From contig JAJPIL010000001.1 of the NCBI GenBank assembly GCA_021324755.1, positions 152 to 64,151 of the forward strand: a stretch of DNA of 64,000 nucleotides, read 5' to 3'. Shown here piece after piece: positions 3,452 through 22,546 of the stretch (position 1 is its first letter; each line of letters starts with the position of its first letter). Made by a program: the position numbers and the translations under genes. The stretch comes from Pseudomonadota bacterium. Its GTDB lineage: Bacteria > Desulfobacterota > Binatia > Binatales > Binataceae. The notes beneath the pieces were generated by a model. That model worked only from the letters and a program-made list of their open reading frames with translations. It had not been told where the DNA came from and did not search any database.

Positions 3452-4283
3452 ACCTTCCTTCGCGCCTCGGATATACAAAAGCTATACTCGCTTTGACCGC
3501 AGAGGGCAAGCCGTAACGATCGATTCTCACCGCACGCCCGATCTGCAAGGAATGCGACCTTCCTGCGATTGCCCGCACCCCGCTCATCTGCGGACTAAAT
3601 CGCAGGCAGGCTTGCACCGGAGTTCTCGGCGCTAGCGCGCTTAAGTATACGCGCTTTGCCGCACAAGCCGCCGCTTCGGCTGTTTCCGCAATTACGTCTT
3701 GCGCTAGCAGACGCGATCGATTATCGAAAATAAGCCCGAAAGACCCGTGACCCAACCTACCGCAACAGAACGGAAGCAATATGAACGTTGAGAACAGTAA
3801 CAGCGATTTTTTCCGACACGCTAACGCCGATTAAAACAAAAACCCGTAGAGGCCGAGCTTCAACTGCACAGCAAGGCCAGTGACACGCAGCGCCGATTGT
3901 GTTCGCCCGCCTTGGAGATAGCCGTGTCCTGGCCATTTCGATTGCTATATGTGCAGTTTACTAGGTATGCTACCCACACATCGGTAGCGAGCGTCAGCGC
4001 CGTATCGGCCTCCAGCAGAAACGCGAGCCCATCCAGGCCTGCGGCGAACGGTTCCGCCGACGCCTCCGGTCAGTTCACTGTCCTCTCCGCGACCTGCAGG
4101 GAGCGTTCAGCGGTCACTTATCGGAAGCGTCGTCGACATGTAAGAGGGGGATGACGAAACTTACAGGGCGGGGCTGGGACGGGTCCACTGTGGGTCGCCA
4201 CATGACCTACGCCGTCTCGGACCACGCGAATGCCGCCACTGTCCGATTCGCGATCTTCTGGTGGCCCATCTGGAGGTGAGGAC

Positions 4284-5189
4284 ATGACTATTCCAGACTA
4301 TCAGACCTTTATGCGCCCGTTGCTCGAGCTACTCAGCGACGGCCAAGAACGTTCAAGGCGCGAATGCATCGATGCGCTTGCAGACCGTTTTGGTCTTTCC
4401 AGAGAAGAGCGAGCAAAGCTGCTCCCTAGTGGGCAGCACCGGGTTCTCGATAACCGCGTTGACTGGGCTAAATACCACTTGAAAGAAGCCCATCTTATCG
4501 GGGCGCCCACCCGTGGCCGCTGGCACATAACCCCTTTAGGCCAGCAAGCGCTAAAAGAGCATCCCGGCGAAATCGACGGCGAGTTCCTCAAGCGCTACTC
4601 GGAATTCAGGCAACAAAGCGCGACAAAGTCGAGCGACCGGGAGGCGTCTGCATCGGAACACGCGCACGCTGACCCCGTGGAGCAAATCGAACGCGCATTT
4701 TCAAGTTACCAGGAATCGCTAGTCGATGACCTGCTGGAAAAGATCCGCATGGCAACTCCGGTCTTTTTCGGGCGCTTGGTGATCCGGCTGCTTGTTGCGA
4801 TGGGTTACGGAGGCGGACTTAGGGAGGCCGCGGAAGCCGTGAACGAGAGCGGCGACGAAGGAATCGACGGCATCATCAACCAGGACAAGCTAGGCTTGGA
4901 CACCATCTATATTCAAGCCAAGCAATGGACCAAACCGGTGGGGCGTCCTGAGATTCAGAAGTTCGTCGGTGCGTTGGAGGGGAAAAAATGCAAGAAGGGG
5001 ATTTTCATAACAAGTTCGGAGTTCACCAGAGATGCACAAGATTTCGTCACTCACCTGCAATCGCGGGTGGTCCTGATCGATGGGAGAAAGATGGCACGCC
5101 ATATGATTGGACACAACGTAGGTGTAACGACCAAGTTTGTTTACGAACTGAAGTCAATAGATGAGGATTTTTTCGAAGATGAAACCTGA
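4284..5189 (+). CDS. mrr: Mrr-family type IV (modification-dependent) restriction endonuclease, Mrr_N winged helix plus Mrr catalytic domain
   Basis: N-terminus MTIPDYQTFMRPLLELLSDG is typical of Mrr_N. The C-terminal region DGIINQDKLGLDTIYIQAKQW ... GIFITSSEFT matches the Mrr_cat PD-(D/E)xK core. GGAGGTGA SD 5 nt before the ATG at 4284. The ORF track starts at 4230, which is probably an extension. Confidence 0.8.
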   Translation: MTIPDYQTFMRPLLELLSDGQERSRRECIDALADRFGLSREERAKLLPSGQHRVLDNRVDWAKYHLKEAHLIGAPTRGRWHITPLGQQALKEHPGEIDGEFLKRYSEFRQQSATKSSDREASASEHAHADPVEQIERAFSSYQESLVDDLLEKIRMATPVFFGRLVIRLLVAMGYGGGLREAAEAVNESGDEGIDGIINQDKLGLDTIYIQAKQWTKPVGRPEIQKFVGALEGKKCKKGIFITSSEFTRDAQDFVTHLQSRVVLIDGRKMARHMIGHNVGVTTKFVYELKSIDEDFFEDET

Positions 5190-17690: not shown

Positions 17691-17924
17691 TCAGCTGCTC
17701 CTGCGCTTGAACGTAAGCGCAAGTTCGCTTCCGCGAAGCGTGCAGGTCACATTGTCGCCGGCCTTGAGCCTTAGCGCCTTGCGCACCGGGGCGGGAATAA
17801 CGATTCGCCCCTGCAAATCGAGCTTGACGGTGTAGGAGTCCGCTTTCTTAGGCGGCTTGGAAACTTTTTGCGCCTTCACCATCGGTTTCGATTTCGCCTT
17901 CATAGCCGTAACCCTCTGTACCAT
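17691..17924 (-). CDS. AbrB/MazE/SpoVT-type DNA-binding protein (orphan antitoxin-like regulator)
   Basis: LQGRIVIPAPVRKALRLKAGDNV matches the swapped-hairpin AbrB domain. No partner toxin ORF is evident downstream. Preceded by an AT-richer promoter-like spacer at 17925..18178. Confidence 0.6.
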   Translation of the reverse strand: MVQRVTAMKAKSKPMVKAQKVSKPPKKADSYTVKLDLQGRIVIPAPVRKALRLKAGDNVTCTLRGSELALTFKRRSS

Positions 17925-18178: not shown

Positions 18179-18736
18179 CTAAGCTTCGTCAGCGTCGTCT
18201 TGCTTGGCGTCGTCAGCGGCGGCGTCGTCGCCTTGCTTGGCGTCGTCGGCCTGCGACTCGTCGCCCAGGTAGACAGAACTATTCGGCGCCGCCAGATATT
18301 CGCGCAACGCCACGATCGACAGTTTGTCGAACGAGGCAAGCGTGGCCTCGGTCTGTTGGCGCGCCGGCGCGTCGAGCCCCAGAAGGGCCGCTTCGCGCTC
18401 CTCGATCTTAAGCGCCCGGTCGATCGCTTTTAGCGGCTCGCGCTCAAAATGTTGCCACAAAAGCCTGCGCATCGCACCAAGCCGCCGGAGCATCGCTTGT
18501 CGCGCCTGCTCCAGGTCGCTCGTCGGCTCCTGTCGAGCCTCGCGCAAAAGCGCCGCAAGTTCGCCGACGCCTCTTCCAGGGGCCTTCCGCTCGCTCCTGG
18601 TCTCGCCGCTCGCCGCAACCTGTGGCAGCAGGGGTTTTGCCGAACCGCGTTTGGTTGCGGCTTTAATCCCATTTTTTCGTTTCGGTCCTCGAGTGGAAGT
18701 CCTTTGGTTGGTCGGCCGCTTATCCCTCGTTCGCAT
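18179..18736 (-). CDS. hypothetical protein, basic N-terminus (K/R-rich) and acidic D/A/K-repeat C-terminal tail
   Basis: ORF co-directional with the upstream replicon-like genes. The C-terminal DDAKQGDDAAADDAKQDDADEA is encoded by short GAC-GAC-GCC repeats. No family recognised. Confidence 0.45.
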   Translation of the reverse strand: MRTRDKRPTNQRTSTRGPKRKNGIKAATKRGSAKPLLPQVAASGETRSERKAPGRGVGELAALLREARQEPTSDLEQARQAMLRRLGAMRRLLWQHFEREPLKAIDRALKIEEREAALLGLDAPARQQTEATLASFDKLSIVALREYLAAPNSSVYLGDESQADDAKQGDDAAADDAKQDDADEA

Positions 18737-18741
18737 CGATC

Positions 18742-18916
18742 GCCTCGCTCGATTTTTTGGATCTGTTTCTTTGGTACGCTCAATCGTGCTCCCCGTCGCG
18801 CCTTTTTGGTCCGCCTAGTCGCGGTCCCCATCGCGCCTTTTTGGTCGGCTTAATCGTGACCTCTAACGCACCTTTTGATAGGCCTAATCGCGGCTTTCGT
18901 CGCGCCTTTTTTCGCC
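18742..18916. repeat. about 5 tandem 35-bp direct repeats (consensus about GCYTAATCGYGSTCCCCRTCGCGCCTTTTTGGTCS), iteron-like
   Basis: Read directly. Four clean units lie at 18777-18811, 18812-18846, 18847-18881 and 18882-18916, with a degenerate fifth upstream. They occupy the intergenic space between the zinc-ribbon gene and the 185-aa gene. Confidence 0.75.
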
Positions 18917-19358: not shown

Positions 19359-20810
19359 CTATCGCCTCCTGGTCTGCCCTTCGACGGCGCGCTCGAGCCA
19401 GCGCGCGACGAACCGCTTGACCGTTTGCGCCGAGGGCGCCCGGCTCGGGTTTCCATCCAACCAGAGCGCCATCTTGGCGAACTCCGCCTCGAGCATCTCA
19501 AGGCTAAGCCCGCCGACGGCCTCGCTAAGCCGACACCAAAAGTCATAATCCGAAAGCAGAACGTCTAGCGTCGGCCCGCTGAAAGTCCTTTGGCGCTTGC
19601 GCAAAAAGCGCTCGAGCCATCGGTCCTGCTCCTCCCATCGCAATTCGCCGCCTCCAGCCGTGCCGTCCGCGCCGCCGGCACTTGCACTGGAGGGCTTGAA
19701 GGGCGCGCCCTGGGTGGGTTCGCGCTCGGGAAAATAAGCGCCAGCGCCGGCGCGGTCACCGTCCGGGCCGCAACTGCGCGCCAGGCAAGGCGTATCCGAG
19801 CCCGAAGCAGCGCAGCTGGAGGAAATCGTTTTGGGCAACAGGAGGCTGCCTAAACCGCTCGCTTGGCGGCACAAGCGGCCTAAAGAATTCTCCTCGGACC
19901 AGTCGCCGCCGACGCTTGCCGATAGCGCCGCAGAAAAGCTGCTGTTTGCCTCGGCGTCGGCGCACGAAAAGCCGACTTCGACCCGACGGCGCGCCGAAAA
20001 AGTGCTGGGGTCGGCCGAAGCACGTGCATGGAAGGCGACGGCCTGGTCCGCAGTGCAGCTGCCGGCGGTATCAACGGAATTAGGAGAGAACAACGATTGG
20101 ACATTGGACGATAGCGAATTGATCGATCTGGAGGCTGGATCGCCATTTAGCGCCTTGCCGTTACATTTAACGGCTTGGCCAGCGGAATGGATCGGCGAGC
20201 TAGCGGTTGAGTGCGACGAGCGAGGCGAAAAGGAAGGAAAATCGCTGTCGCTAGCGAGGCGTGGACGGGCGTTAGGAGGTGCTGGAGTATGGGCCGCGGG
20301 CGGTAACTCGTAGTTGCTGCTTTTCTCAGGGTCAGGGGCGTGCAGGGCGCAGGGATCTGAACTGATTTGGCTCGGGCTCGAGGCCTGCGTGGATGGCGAA
20401 TCTGGGTCGAGTTCGTGGGCGCGCGAGGTCGAGGGTGGGGGCGGCGAAAAGCTCACGTTTTTGGAAGCGCAAGATTCGGGCGGCGGAGGGGGAATCTCGC
20501 TTTGCGCTTCGTGCGGATGAGGCCGTTGATGGCGTCGCCAGGTGGGAATCGCGATATACGCTTCGCCTGCGACGCGGTAGCGTACGATCAAGTTTTGGCG
20601 CGCAAGCTCTTCGAGCCAGCGGTCGACCTGCGCGGGCTTGAGCCGGTCGTAAGGGAAGAGCTTTATCGCGATATGTTCGGGACGGTCCTTGAGCCGCCCT
20701 TCGCGGTCGGCCATATTCCACAGGCCGATAAAAGTGAGCCGGGCATGGTGACTTAGGCGGCCGATTTGGGGGCTTTCCCAGAACTCGGGTCGAATCGTTC
20801 TGATGCGCAT
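19359..20810 (-). CDS. phage/plasmid-associated replication-initiator-like protein of the 'MRxIxPEFW' family. N-terminal winged-helix-like domain, long S/P/A-rich low-complexity linker, then a distinct C-terminal domain of about 100 aa.
   Basis: N-terminus MRIRTIRPEFWESPQIGRLSHHARLTFIGLWNMADREGRL ... IAIKLFPYDRL ... VDRWLEELARQNLIVRY resembles a family I recall from prophage and plasmid replication or replisome-organiser modules. I cannot name the Pfam family with certainty. The flanking iteron-like repeats support a replication role. Confidence 0.5.
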   Translation of the reverse strand: MRIRTIRPEFWESPQIGRLSHHARLTFIGLWNMADREGRLKDRPEHIAIKLFPYDRLKPAQVDRWLEELARQNLIVRYRVAGEAYIAIPTWRRHQRPHPHEAQSEIPPPPPESCASKNVSFSPPPPSTSRAHELDPDSPSTQASSPSQISSDPCALHAPDPEKSSNYELPPAAHTPAPPNARPRLASDSDFPSFSPRSSHSTASSPIHSAGQAVKCNGKALNGDPASRSINSLSSNVQSLFSPNSVDTAGSCTADQAVAFHARASADPSTFSARRRVEVGFSCADAEANSSFSAALSASVGGDWSEENSLGRLCRQASGLGSLLLPKTISSSCAASGSDTPCLARSCGPDGDRAGAGAYFPEREPTQGAPFKPSSASAGGADGTAGGGELRWEEQDRWLERFLRKRQRTFSGPTLDVLLSDYDFWCRLSEAVGGLSLEMLEAEFAKMALWLDGNPSRAPSAQTVKRFVARWLERAVEGQTRRR

Positions 20811-21281
20811 AGGTTTTAGCCTCCGACTAATGGCGCGGATTTTTTGGTGCGCGACTTTTTGCGCGCTCGAGCCAGCGCGGCCTTGAGGTTGCGTACGCGG
20901 CGTTTAAAGGGGTCGAGAAGGCGCTTTGAGTTCGCCACTTTAACCGACGCTGCGCCCCAGGCGCTTGGGCCGCGTATCGCGAGAGGAAAAGATCGTTCGT
21001 TTGCACGCGGGCGCCTTGGGCCGGCTTTAACGCGACGAGGTTGATTCGGCGACAAGCGAAGGTGTCGTCCGAGGGCTTTCGGACTGGGAGGTCCGAGCGG
21101 GCGCCCAACGCGCGGTAGATTTTTTGTGTGCGGTAGGATTGGAGGATTTTTGCTTTGCGATTAGGGTTCGACTTTGCCGAAGGTCGAATTGGTTTAGCAT
21201 TGGGGATGGGGTTTAGGTGAGCGTGGCGAGACGGTCGATTGGGGTTTTGGGTTTTGGAGATGCGGGTGCGGGTTGGGACAA

Positions 21282-22100
21282 GGACGGTACGGATATCGTT
21301 TCGGACGAAGTTCTGGATTTGTCCAGGGCGAATGCCAATTTTCATCAAATCGGGGATCAGCAGGGCACGAGTCCCGGTTGGAACACAATTTGGGATTTGT
21401 GGGGCGCGAATGCTGATTCGCACGAAGCTTGGAGCGTGAAGGGCGCTGATACCGATTCGAACAAAACTGGTGATTTGACGGGCAGAAGTGCCGATTCGAA
21501 AAAAGTTCGGCGTCGGTACGACACGACTCCTGATTAGGACGCAGTTCGGAACTTCGAGGGCTTGGGTGTTAATTTGAACAAAGCGCGGAATTTGACCGGC
21601 GCAAGTCCCGATTTGTGCGAAGTTCGGGATTTTAAGGGCGCGAATCCCGGTCCGCACGAGGTTCAGGATTTGGAGCGCGCGAATGCTGATTCGCAGGAAG
21701 TGCGCAACCTGTAGGGCTAGGGTGCCAAGTCGAGCAAAGTTCTGGATTTGACGTGCGCAAATGCCGATTCGAACGAAGCTCGTGTTTTGACCGGCGCGGG
21801 TGCCAGTTTGAACGGAGCTCTTAATTTGACCGGCGCCGGTGCCGATTTGGACAAAGTTCTGGATTTTACGGGCACGAGTGCCGGTTAGAATGAAGTTGGT
21901 GACCTGACGGGTGCGGACGGCAATTCGAACGGGATTGTGGATTTGACCGGCAGGAGTGCAGGTTCGAACGAAGTTTGTGGTTTCACGGGCGCCGGTGCCA
22001 ATTCGAACAGAGCCCGGCCTTTGCCCCGCACAAACACCAATTCGAACAAGGTTTGTGGTTTGTAAGTCGCAGGCGTGAATTCGGACAAAATTCGGACAGA
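21282..22100. repeat. 21 tandem copies of a 39-bp unit (consensus about GGCGCGAGTGCCGATTCGAACGAAGTTCTGGATTTGACC), degenerate, head-to-tail
   Basis: Read directly; period exactly 39 bp (13 codons). Reading frames are broken on both strands. The ORFs 20827..21657(-), 21885..22115(-) and 21217..21537(+) each show 13-aa pseudo-repeats in different frames. Confidence 0.85.
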
Positions 22101-22546
22101 TCGTTTCAAACGCAATTCTATTTCCCGAATTCCCGCATATTTTCTGTTCTTCTCTTTTCCCGTACCCCTCTTTTGGCGTGATGTTTAATCACGGCAAAAA
22201 CAGAGAGTCGGTGTGCTGGCTGTTTGGCAAGTGAAATGCGGAGAACATGGCGCGGCAAGGCCGGCGCTCGGACAGTTTAAACGCCCGAATTAGCGAGATA
22301 CGCATGAGTGGCAGCCGATTCGAAGGAAGGCAATCAATTGCCTTAAAAGAGACAGAGCCGATATCTCGTAAGACGCGAGACTATCGCTTTTGCTAGGCGT
22401 CGAAGATATCCCATTTGAAAAATGGCACGCCCAAAAGCTACAGCAATCCGGAGGTCAAACCGATGGAAAAAGCTAGCGGGCACAGCTATCGCGCAGCTGC
22501 CTGGTTTGTACGGAGCGCTTCACCAGCCGTTATCAGAGAAATGAAG

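Follow-up and report, generated by a model that had tools for sequence, protein, structure and literature searches.

A 21-unit array of 39-bp direct repeats beside a chromosomal phage-type replication-initiator gene, and its apparent derivation from a conserved upstream element

Introduction

Why does the chromosome of a soil bacterium carry a long array of diverged direct repeats next to a gene for a phage-type replication initiator? The question was raised by a stretch of 64,000 nucleotides (the window), in which a sequence-only reading had noticed the array and suggested for it a cis-acting maintenance role in a replicon-like module, a parS-like centromere or a decayed repeat-protein gene. 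To answer it, we analyzed the architecture of the array, its neighboring genes, its relatives and its coding potential. We favor the explanation that the array arose when a site for initiator binding or an operator was amplified in one lineage, and that it would now be a multi-site titration or autoregulatory array with constrained spacing, and we give this explanation a probability of about 0.5. The array is probably non-coding DNA.

Results

The array is contiguous and sharply bounded

When its 819 bp were arranged in 39-bp register, the array was found to consist of 21 contiguous, head-to-tail direct repeats of 39 bp with no indels (Table 1), which agreed with the count of the sequence-only reading. 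The identity at lag 39 was 0.572 (z=20), compared with 0.19-0.29 at lags 30-49 and 0.257±0.016 in shuffles. In a position-weight scan, all 21 units scored positive (+21 to +47) and both flanks scored negative (-17 to -58), so the boundaries of the array are sharp. Tandem Repeats Finder (TRF) at default settings saw the array at 21572-22009 and missed the rest of its extent, because the copies are so diverged. The unit consensus is GACGGGCGCGAGTGCCGATTCGAACGAAGTTCGGGATTT on the plus strand, and in the sense of rep (minus strand) a unit reads ...CCGAACTTCGTTCGAAT and then runs on into about 20 bp of GC-rich spacer. An internal sub-repeat of 18+21 bp in each unit, with RATTYGA half-sites, was weakly supported (lag-18 and lag-21 identity 0.328).

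The same array sequence recurred in at least five independent assemblies or samples (ENA, JGI and Logan), which excludes an assembly artefact, and it was identical in all assemblies compared (five sample accessions). The units are contiguous and diverged and have no spacers, in line with the earlier view that the array is not CRISPR-like, and no relevant cas or defense genes were found with defense-system models. No copy of the array core was found elsewhere in the 64 kb, and a dispersed generic repeat was rejected for this reason. Known plasmid or phage DNA was rejected as well, since blastn in distant mode against 72,556 plasmids and 50,697 phage records gave no match. In viral contigs, the search for the lag-39 ATTCGAAC pattern returned only chance matches and one unrelated 39-bp array (L067).

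The distance between the array and the Rep-like gene, previously given as 20 bp, is 471 bp from the array end to the rep ATG (20810). A short gap of 16 bases lies between this ATG and the stop (20827) of an open frame on the minus strand.

Table 1 Features of the array locus in the window.
Feature	Position	Strand	Basis or remarks
21 x 39-bp direct-repeat array	21282..22100	-	Register layout, lag identity, position-weight scan
Putative founder doublet TGTCCGAATTTTGTCCGAAT, two 8-mers 11 bp apart	22079..22098	-	Inside the rightmost array unit
Conserved upstream block	22100..22192	-	Common to relatives; inverted repeat, purine-rich and AT-rich stretch, GCGTTTG
Inverted repeat GTGATTAAACATCAC	22178-22192	-	In the conserved upstream block
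GCGTTTG	22107-22113	-	In the conserved upstream block
453-codon open frame	20827..22188	-	Stop-free through the array and for 150 codons beyond
rep, 483 aa	19359..20810	-	PHROG match, AF2, Foldseek; winged helix at aa 1-110, long disordered linker, conserved C-domain
Zinc-ribbon protein, 157 aa	18884..19357	-	Adjoins rep in all relatives, 60-63% identity
Basic/acidic coiled protein, 185 aa (p185)	18179..18736	-	Third module gene, 45-60% identity
AbrB/MazE-type small DNA-binding protein	17691..17924	-	Downstream, same strand

The neighboring gene encodes a phage-type initiator homologue in a chromosomal setting

The gene rep is preceded by GGAGG about 9 nt 5' of its ATG. Residues 1-150 of its product matched PHROG families annotated as 'replication initiation protein' with E values from 1.8e-37 to 2.5e-9, with PHROG 16167, 2149 and 1408 at the strong end of this range (E=1.8e-37 to 2.5e-28), and homologues of the rep domain were found in 508 phage records. 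The AF2 model of Rep aa 1-115, obtained with a shallow alignment, was a winged helix with a pLDDT of 89.4. Foldseek searches with the N-domain model returned 4PQL and 4PT7 as the best PDB folds, which we take to be the N-domains of staphylococcal plasmid RepA initiators, followed by wHTH repressors. Rep had no Pfam match, and a PDB sequence search with the Rep profile returned none. Judged by these matches and this model, the 483-aa neighbor is a homologue of phage-type replication initiators, and its earlier designation as Rep-like was borne out.

The window comes from the chromosome of an uncultured soil bacterium. The left flank contained a menaquinone (men) gene set, an OmpA-like gene and hypothetical genes, and the right flank contained genes for an MscS-like 593-aa membrane protein, a HAD hydrolase, a luciferase-like oxidoreductase, GlgE, TreS-Mak and Tad/T2SS. 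No integrase, helicase, primase or partition genes were found among the module and flank proteins with Pfam, PHROG and NCBIfam, and there were no DnaA boxes in the region. Besides Rep, the AbrB/MazE-type protein encoded downstream is a possible binder of the array.

The array appears to derive from a doublet conserved upstream of rep

To place the array in its evolutionary context, we compared the locus with those of three related MAG lineages (GCA_021799775.1, GCA_021801125.1 and the metagenome contig Ga0080006_1088842). These were found by alignment-based scans, single-protein scans of genome and metagenome collections having given no match. In all three relatives, the gene order was T2SS, TreS-Mak, GlgE, luciferase, HAD, the 593-like gene, rep, the zinc-ribbon gene and p185. 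The core enzymes were 73-76% identical to those of the window and the Rep N-domain was 78-83% identical, compared with 48-54% for the 593-aa neighbor. On the basis of this synteny and of the higher conservation of the Rep N-domain than of the 593-aa neighbor, the rep module is old, vertically inherited and under purifying selection. The module is thus not the replicon-like one that had been proposed; in four lineages it has been inherited vertically at the same chromosomal position.

The array was absent from the three relatives, all of which keep the rep module, and was found in one lineage of the four. It is therefore not needed for the role of the module. The relatives had no ORF upstream of rep, where the gap measured 474-595 bp, compared with 1736 bp in the window.

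An upstream block was common to the window and all relatives, and included an inverted repeat (GTGATTARACATCAC), a purine/AT-rich stretch, GCGTTTG and a terminal doublet. An AT-rich patch with a GC content of 39-42% is located at 22080-22200. The block is likely to be a promoter/operator or origin-like region of the rep operon; a scan for sigma-70-like promoters found none. The doublet that closes the block has the form TGTCCGAA-N3-TGTCCGAAT, and in the relatives it reads TGTCCGAA-N3-TGTCCGA(A/G)T, with the first 8-mer identical across the three and the second differing by at most one base. It was the only such pair in each relative's locus, where it was located 100-260 bp upstream of rep.

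The array of the window has this doublet as its exact starting point. On the rep-sense strand, the unit consensus CCGAACTTCGTTCGAAT and the doublet CCGAATTTTGTCCGAAT match at 14 of 17 positions. The apparent source of the array is a conserved cis element in the control region upstream of rep, and the most economical history would be one in which this lineage alone multiplied the doublet, together with some 20 bp of the GC-rich sequence beside it, to 21 copies.

The units diverged evenly and kept their spacing

Individual units matched the consensus at 21-33 of the 39 positions (mean 72%), which left 225 differences (28%). The pairwise identity between units was 57-62% at every lag, a star-like pattern without higher-order repeats. 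The divergence of 15-25% given in the sequence-only reading was thus too low, the values being 28% from the consensus and about 40% between units, and its strongly conserved core was overstated, as the 26-nt center of the 29-nt core was found in one copy at up to three mismatches. The best-kept segment was ATTCGAAC, which stood out modestly; columns 18, 19 and 21 (TTxG) were the most conserved, and the top 7-mer was ATTCGAA(C). Perfect TTCG[AG]AC was found in only 8 of the 21 units, most motif copies being degenerate. The 11-bp periodicity of the doublet was undetectable inside the units (lag-11 identity 0.275), and the consensus dyad CGAAC-GAA-GTTCG was intact in none of the 21 units and showed no compensatory changes.

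Despite at least 225 substitutions, no indels were found across the array, where 5-14 were expected (P ~0.01 to 1e-6). This expectation was taken from alignable upstream DNA of the same genomes, which showed about one gap per 16-50 mismatches. Given the absence of indels and the preservation of ATTCGAAC, which corresponds to the conserved doublet, the spacing of the array, and to a lesser degree its motif, appears to be under constraint.

The same patterns bear on a neutral minisatellite, in which a single burst of slippage or unequal crossover at the doublet would have produced 21 identical units that then decayed independently and had no function. Such a history would fit the equidistance of the units at all lags, the degenerate state of most motif copies and the absence of the array from all three relatives with the rep module. 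It would also fit the column variability, which was only mildly over-dispersed (index 1.33) and close to Poisson and to uniform neutral decay. However, it has to contend with the missing indels, with the best conservation falling on the very segment that corresponds to the doublet motif, and with the 0 stops found in one frame, where 6.6-6.8 were expected under random placement (P=0.0008 and 0.024). We regard neutral decay alone as doubtful, although it is the alternative that survives best.

The open frame through the array is probably not translated

The sequence-only reading had described the frames as broken on both strands and had dismissed coding because no frame stayed open. This was a reading error, as one minus-strand frame is stop-free for 453 codons, and coding is ranked low here on other grounds. 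The frame reads QIxNFVRIGTRAx through the repeats, and its 3' part (20827-21657) has been called as a 276-aa ORF by gene callers and is listed in databases as a hypothetical protein.

If translated, the frame would specify an orphan, maybe de novo, very basic protein made of these 13-residue repeats, with a predicted beta-strand meander; its start would be unusual, or it would begin at GTG 21657 and have 276 aa. Several observations are in favor of such a protein. Under uniform mutation, 6.6 stops were expected and none was found (P=0.0008), and the frame stays open past the array to 16 bases short of the rep ATG (P=0.015). The third-position columns varied most, with synonymous pairs at many conserved residues (TTC/TTT 7:6, ATC/ATT 8:6 and ACC/ACT 5:5), and both BLOSUM conservation and amino-acid identity exceeded permutation (P ~0.02). 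AF2 produced a regular beta-meander with a pLDDT of 75-81 over the central ~80 residues (about 71-150).

These observations are outweighed by evidence from the start region, from homology searches and from codon usage. There was no ATG, GTG or TTG before codon 177 of the frame, the first being GTG 21657, and no Shine-Dalgarno (SD) sequence before any candidate start, whereas rep has GGAGG. An exhaustive phmmer search of 1.84 billion representative proteins returned only the protein itself and low-complexity matches; there was no Pfam, PHROG or NCBIfam match, and the relatives had no ORF at this position. The codon-usage log-odds, calculated with stops excluded and with local composition as background, were -0.06 in the array and -0.16 in the tail, compared with 0.0 to +0.2 for real genes of the window.

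The absence of stops can also be explained at the DNA level. When the base composition of each column was fixed, only 0.55 stops were expected, because the motif G is conserved in both half-sites. From the consensus, the only one-step routes to a stop are CAA->TAA and CGA->TGA, and each requires a G->A change at an equivalent position of one of the two RATTYGA half-sites (columns 0 and 21). The third-codon columns 19 and 37 were near-invariant, CGA accounting for 12 of the 13 Arg codons and CAA for 11 of the 13 Gln codons; read from these codons, the invariance is conservation at the DNA level and not at the protein level. A permutation that kept the column heterogeneity gave P=0.024 for stops and P=0.066 for the synonymous fraction before six-frame correction, and P ~0.1 after it. 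The bias of substitutions by codon position is weak (stops P 0.024, BLOSUM P 0.02 and synonymous 0.066, all uncorrected), and the codon usage is not gene-like.

The AF2 model was set aside as evidence, as its mean pLDDT of 60.6, from a single sequence, was too weak and regular repeats are often over-predicted. Neither strand's frame had homologues, which speaks against the decayed gene of a repeat-protein family that had been suggested. Taken together, the frame is probably not translated, and a protein-coding array is unlikely.

A plus-strand frame, LDLTGASADSNEV, read with TAG recoding, was rejected: it contained 4 TAG and 1 TAA, had no homologues and showed fewer synonymous changes than expected. 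An RNA gene was also rejected, as no Rfam family reached its gathering score, no tRNA or tmRNA was found in the window and the hairpin CGAAC/GTTCG was not maintained. The RNA fold of the whole array had z=-2.7 (20 shuffles), without unit-wise structure.

A combination of both kinds of function is conceivable, in which the amplified cis element now also encodes an orphan, extremely basic beta-strand-repeat protein that is read to just before rep. We consider this dual use quite improbable. If true, it would be an observable de novo gene birth from regulatory DNA, and constraint at the DNA level plus the protein level would explain the perfect 39-bp phasing.

Short direct repeats accompany the wider Rep family

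Among 162 Rep N-domain loci, GAATC/GATTC pentamers occurred at 8.4/kb inside rep (+300..+800) and at 2.2/kb upstream, a four-fold difference. TRF further identified 15/21-bp CTGATTC-type arrays inside the rep genes of the family, just past the N-domain. Repeats within the initiator gene are the classical 'origin inside the initiator gene' layout. From these repeats, binding to short direct repeats within or close to its own gene is predicted to be characteristic of the Rep family. In the clade of the window, no in-gene iterons were found in rep, and the upstream doublet is present instead.

A scan of viral contigs with the doublet pattern yielded more than 120 loci, 55 of them with three or more phased copies, and the TGTCCGAA 8-mer with 11-bp phasing was present in 3-8 copies in many of these contigs. 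In L269, 7-8 tandem copies of TGTCCGAATTT were located inside an ORF directly upstream of dnaB. One prophage family carried a triple TGTCCGAA-type copy 45 bp past its tyrosine integrase gene, and other phased copies adjoined primase-helicase genes. These occurrences near dnaB, primase-helicase and integrase genes suggest that phased TGTCCGAA repeats are a recurrent predicted protein-binding device of replication and recombination modules in mobile elements; homology to the site in the window is not established.

Discussion

Amplification of a control site as the favored explanation

In the explanation that we favor, the rep operon, phage-derived and fixed in the chromosome, had a short conserved control element that was amplified in tandem to 21 x 39 bp in this lineage, and the comparison with relatives strongly indicates this step. 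The amplified element would be the doublet TGTCCGAA-N3-TGTCCGAAT with about 20 bp of adjoining GC-rich sequence, and the doublet is probably the binding site (operator or iteron) for the winged-helix N-domain of the adjacent Rep. The array would then offer about 21-42 degenerate candidate sites and may load or titrate, in a fixed register, Rep or a different small DNA-binding protein encoded in the module. In this way it could buffer free initiator and repress the rep operon, as control-iteron clusters such as P1 incA do. The units would later have diverged to about 60% pairwise identity, while selection on spacing would have kept all 21 in 39-bp phase, with the ATTCGAAC core best preserved. 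The initiator-homologue neighbor and the derivation of the array from a conserved upstream cis element make a cis-acting, initiator-related role the best supported; this part of the maintenance role proposed from the sequence alone was retained, and a plasmid or recent replicon was not.

Some findings are against the control-site explanation. The relatives manage with two sites, so the module can do without the array. Nor do units of 39 bp whose copies differ by about 40% resemble the classical, homogeneous iterons of 17-22 bp. The heavy degeneracy of the units, their near-uniform column variability, the undetectable 11-bp periodicity inside them and the lack of a sigma-70-like promoter in the scan also count against this explanation. 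A model with constraint at the DNA level only does not predict the open frame, the slightly higher variability at third positions or the BLOSUM conservation (P ~0.02-0.07), although it does predict that stops are absent.

Comparison with known repeat systems

Classical iterons are 17-22 bp long, occur in 3-9 nearly identical copies and are found on autonomous replicons. Additional iteron clusters, of which P1 incA is an example, lie apart from the minimal origin; they repress the initiator gene and act on the initiator by titration or handcuffing. The array is similar to the control and origin clusters of iteron-type replicons (P1 incC/incA, R6K, pSC101 and RK2; reviewed in PMC6090056 and PMC5397158) in that direct repeats adjoin an initiator gene and are the presumed targets of the initiator's winged-helix domain. 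It differs in its 39-bp unit with an 18+21 sub-structure, in its 21 copies and in its pairwise identity of about 60%. In addition, its module is inherited vertically as part of the chromosome, lacks a helicase and DnaA boxes, and occurs without the array in relatives. With RepA_N-type plasmid initiators, whose origin lies inside the rep gene, Rep shares an N-terminal winged helix, a variable center and a C-domain, and the phage Rep family has repeats in the central coding region. However, there was no sequence-level homology in the Pfam and PDB searches, and the repeats of this clade are located upstream of rep.

These comparisons also bear on whether the array is a functional replication origin, whose iterons Rep would need to start replication of an autonomous or excisable element. 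An initiator gene is adjacent, the direct repeats adjoin the AT-rich patch, and origins in the Rep family usually take the form of repeats within rep or close to it. Nevertheless, the module occupies a syntenic chromosomal place in species with core enzymes ~73-76% identical, no integrase, helicase, primase or DnaA box accompanies it, the relatives lack the array, and there was no GC-skew switch beyond a local G-rich patch. Given the chromosomal context, the lack of a helicase or DnaA box and the relatives without the array, an essential origin is very unlikely.

The F-plasmid sopC centromere consists of 12 x 43-bp direct repeats (PMC3177203), and the array resembles it as a long array of ~40-bp direct repeats and, by prediction, as a platform for multi-site protein loading. 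The sopC units are near-identical, each with a 16-bp inverted repeat, and are located beside sopAB, whereas the array has highly diverged units and neither partition genes nor a maintained dyad. A partition centromere of the sopC or parS-array type is the least probable of the explanations: no ParA/ParB, ParM/ParR or other partition genes were found in the module or the window flanks, the dyad is intact in no unit and shows no compensation, and the context is chromosomal, with the array absent in relatives. The parS-like centromere suggested at first is close to refuted.

The 39-mers of Vibrio cholerae chromosome II are 39-bp negative-control sites that bind the initiator near an iteron-type origin (PMC3401445). 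The likeness is a functional analogy only, in a titrating or inhibitory role, as these sites are few, non-tandem and bound by the unrelated RctB, and the common length of 39 bp is probably a coincidence. The sites of phage winged-helix proteins (recombination-directionality, arm-binding and replication) share with the locus the TGTCCGAA 8-mer and its 11-bp phasing, but they are 11-bp units in few copies in bona fide phages, again without established homology. The array misses several defining features of each known system, namely unit length and homogeneity, replicon autonomy, partner genes and the dyad.

Implications

Repeats near rep genes are expected. What is unusual here is the size and age of the array, its phase-locking, its birth in a single lineage from a two-site operator, the domesticated initiator beside it and its mimicry of a repeat-protein gene. 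The last of these calls for caution, as a 39-bp (13-codon) repeat around a DNA motif can imitate coding when its frame is open, its variability follows codon phase and its beta-repeat model looks confident, and such mimicry placed a 276-aa 'hypothetical protein' in public databases. If the array binds the Rep-like protein, a chromosomally fixed phage Rep would have gained a large phase-locked platform by amplifying its own operator. The locus would then be a natural experiment in how iteron and control clusters arise, and would give a handle on the role of a domesticated initiator in an uncultured soil lineage.

Gene calls over the repeat array

Public gene calls place a 276-aa hypothetical protein (P0001) over part of the array of 39-bp repeats, whereas the caller used for one assembly predicted an opposite-strand ORF of 96 aa at this site instead. 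The P0001 call probably stems from the stop-free repeat and does not reflect a real gene. Between the array and rep, the replication initiator gene, lies a telomere-like run rich in G-tracts, TTGGGGTTTTGGGTTTTGG, near which the GC skew locally reached up to +0.7; an AT-rich patch was also observed.

Coordinates of the features in the window
Feature	Position	Strand
Inverted-repeat arm	2303-2450	
Inverted-repeat arm	3457-3594	
Mrr-type restriction endonuclease gene	4230-5189	
Small tandem array, TTTTGGTCCGCCTAGTCGCGGTCCCCATCGCGCCTTTTT	18769-18911	
rep	19359-20810	-
P0001	20827-21657	-
AT-rich patch	21120-21199	
G-tract run, between array and rep	21200-21280	+
Single-base difference (C in the window)	25822	

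Other sequence features of the window

A second, smaller array of 4 tandem units of ~35 bp covers the 3' end of the zinc-ribbon gene and the gap preceding the 185-aa gene, and the equivalent place in the related locus L072 (14032-14106) carries a repeat of 22 bp x2.5. Upstream of the Mrr-type gene, inverted-repeat arms (108+31 nt, 77% complementary) enclose ~1 kb, and the segment bounded by them could be mobile or invertible. Comparison of assemblies showed a single-base difference within a luciferase-like gene, where the other assemblies compared (L001-L004) have A; one mismatch to the window was also found in L075-L079.

Repeats within rep genes and in viral contigs

The Rep N-domain family (loci L080-L239) represents a widespread initiator N-domain in phages and prophages, for which no match was found to Pfam models. 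Across 162 loci, GAATC/GATTC pentamers occurred at 8.4/kb inside rep, just past the N-domain, vs 2.2/kb upstream, and the in-rep clusters were often 15/21-bp CTGATTC arrays. This placement is an in-gene type of origin layout, similar to that of RepA_N plasmids.

The motif TGTCCGAA at 11-bp phase was common among viral contigs (L241-L360). It was found in triple copy in a 45-locus prophage family, ~45 bp past a tyrosine integrase gene and adjoining an excisionase-like gene, as 7-8 tandem copies within the ORF immediately upstream of dnaB in L269, and adjoining primase-helicase genes in L258 and L338.

Conservation of Rep in related lineages

We compared rep of the window with three loci of related lineages that carry the rep module at the same chromosomal position (L069, L072 and L160). 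The identity of the Rep N-domain (78-83%) equaled or exceeded that of core enzymes (73-76%), and the adjoining 593-aa membrane protein fell far below it (48-54%). The linker was hypervariable in length, with whole proteins of 365-483 aa. These sequence comparisons suggest that the window Rep is an initiator that has been domesticated and serves a function for the host.
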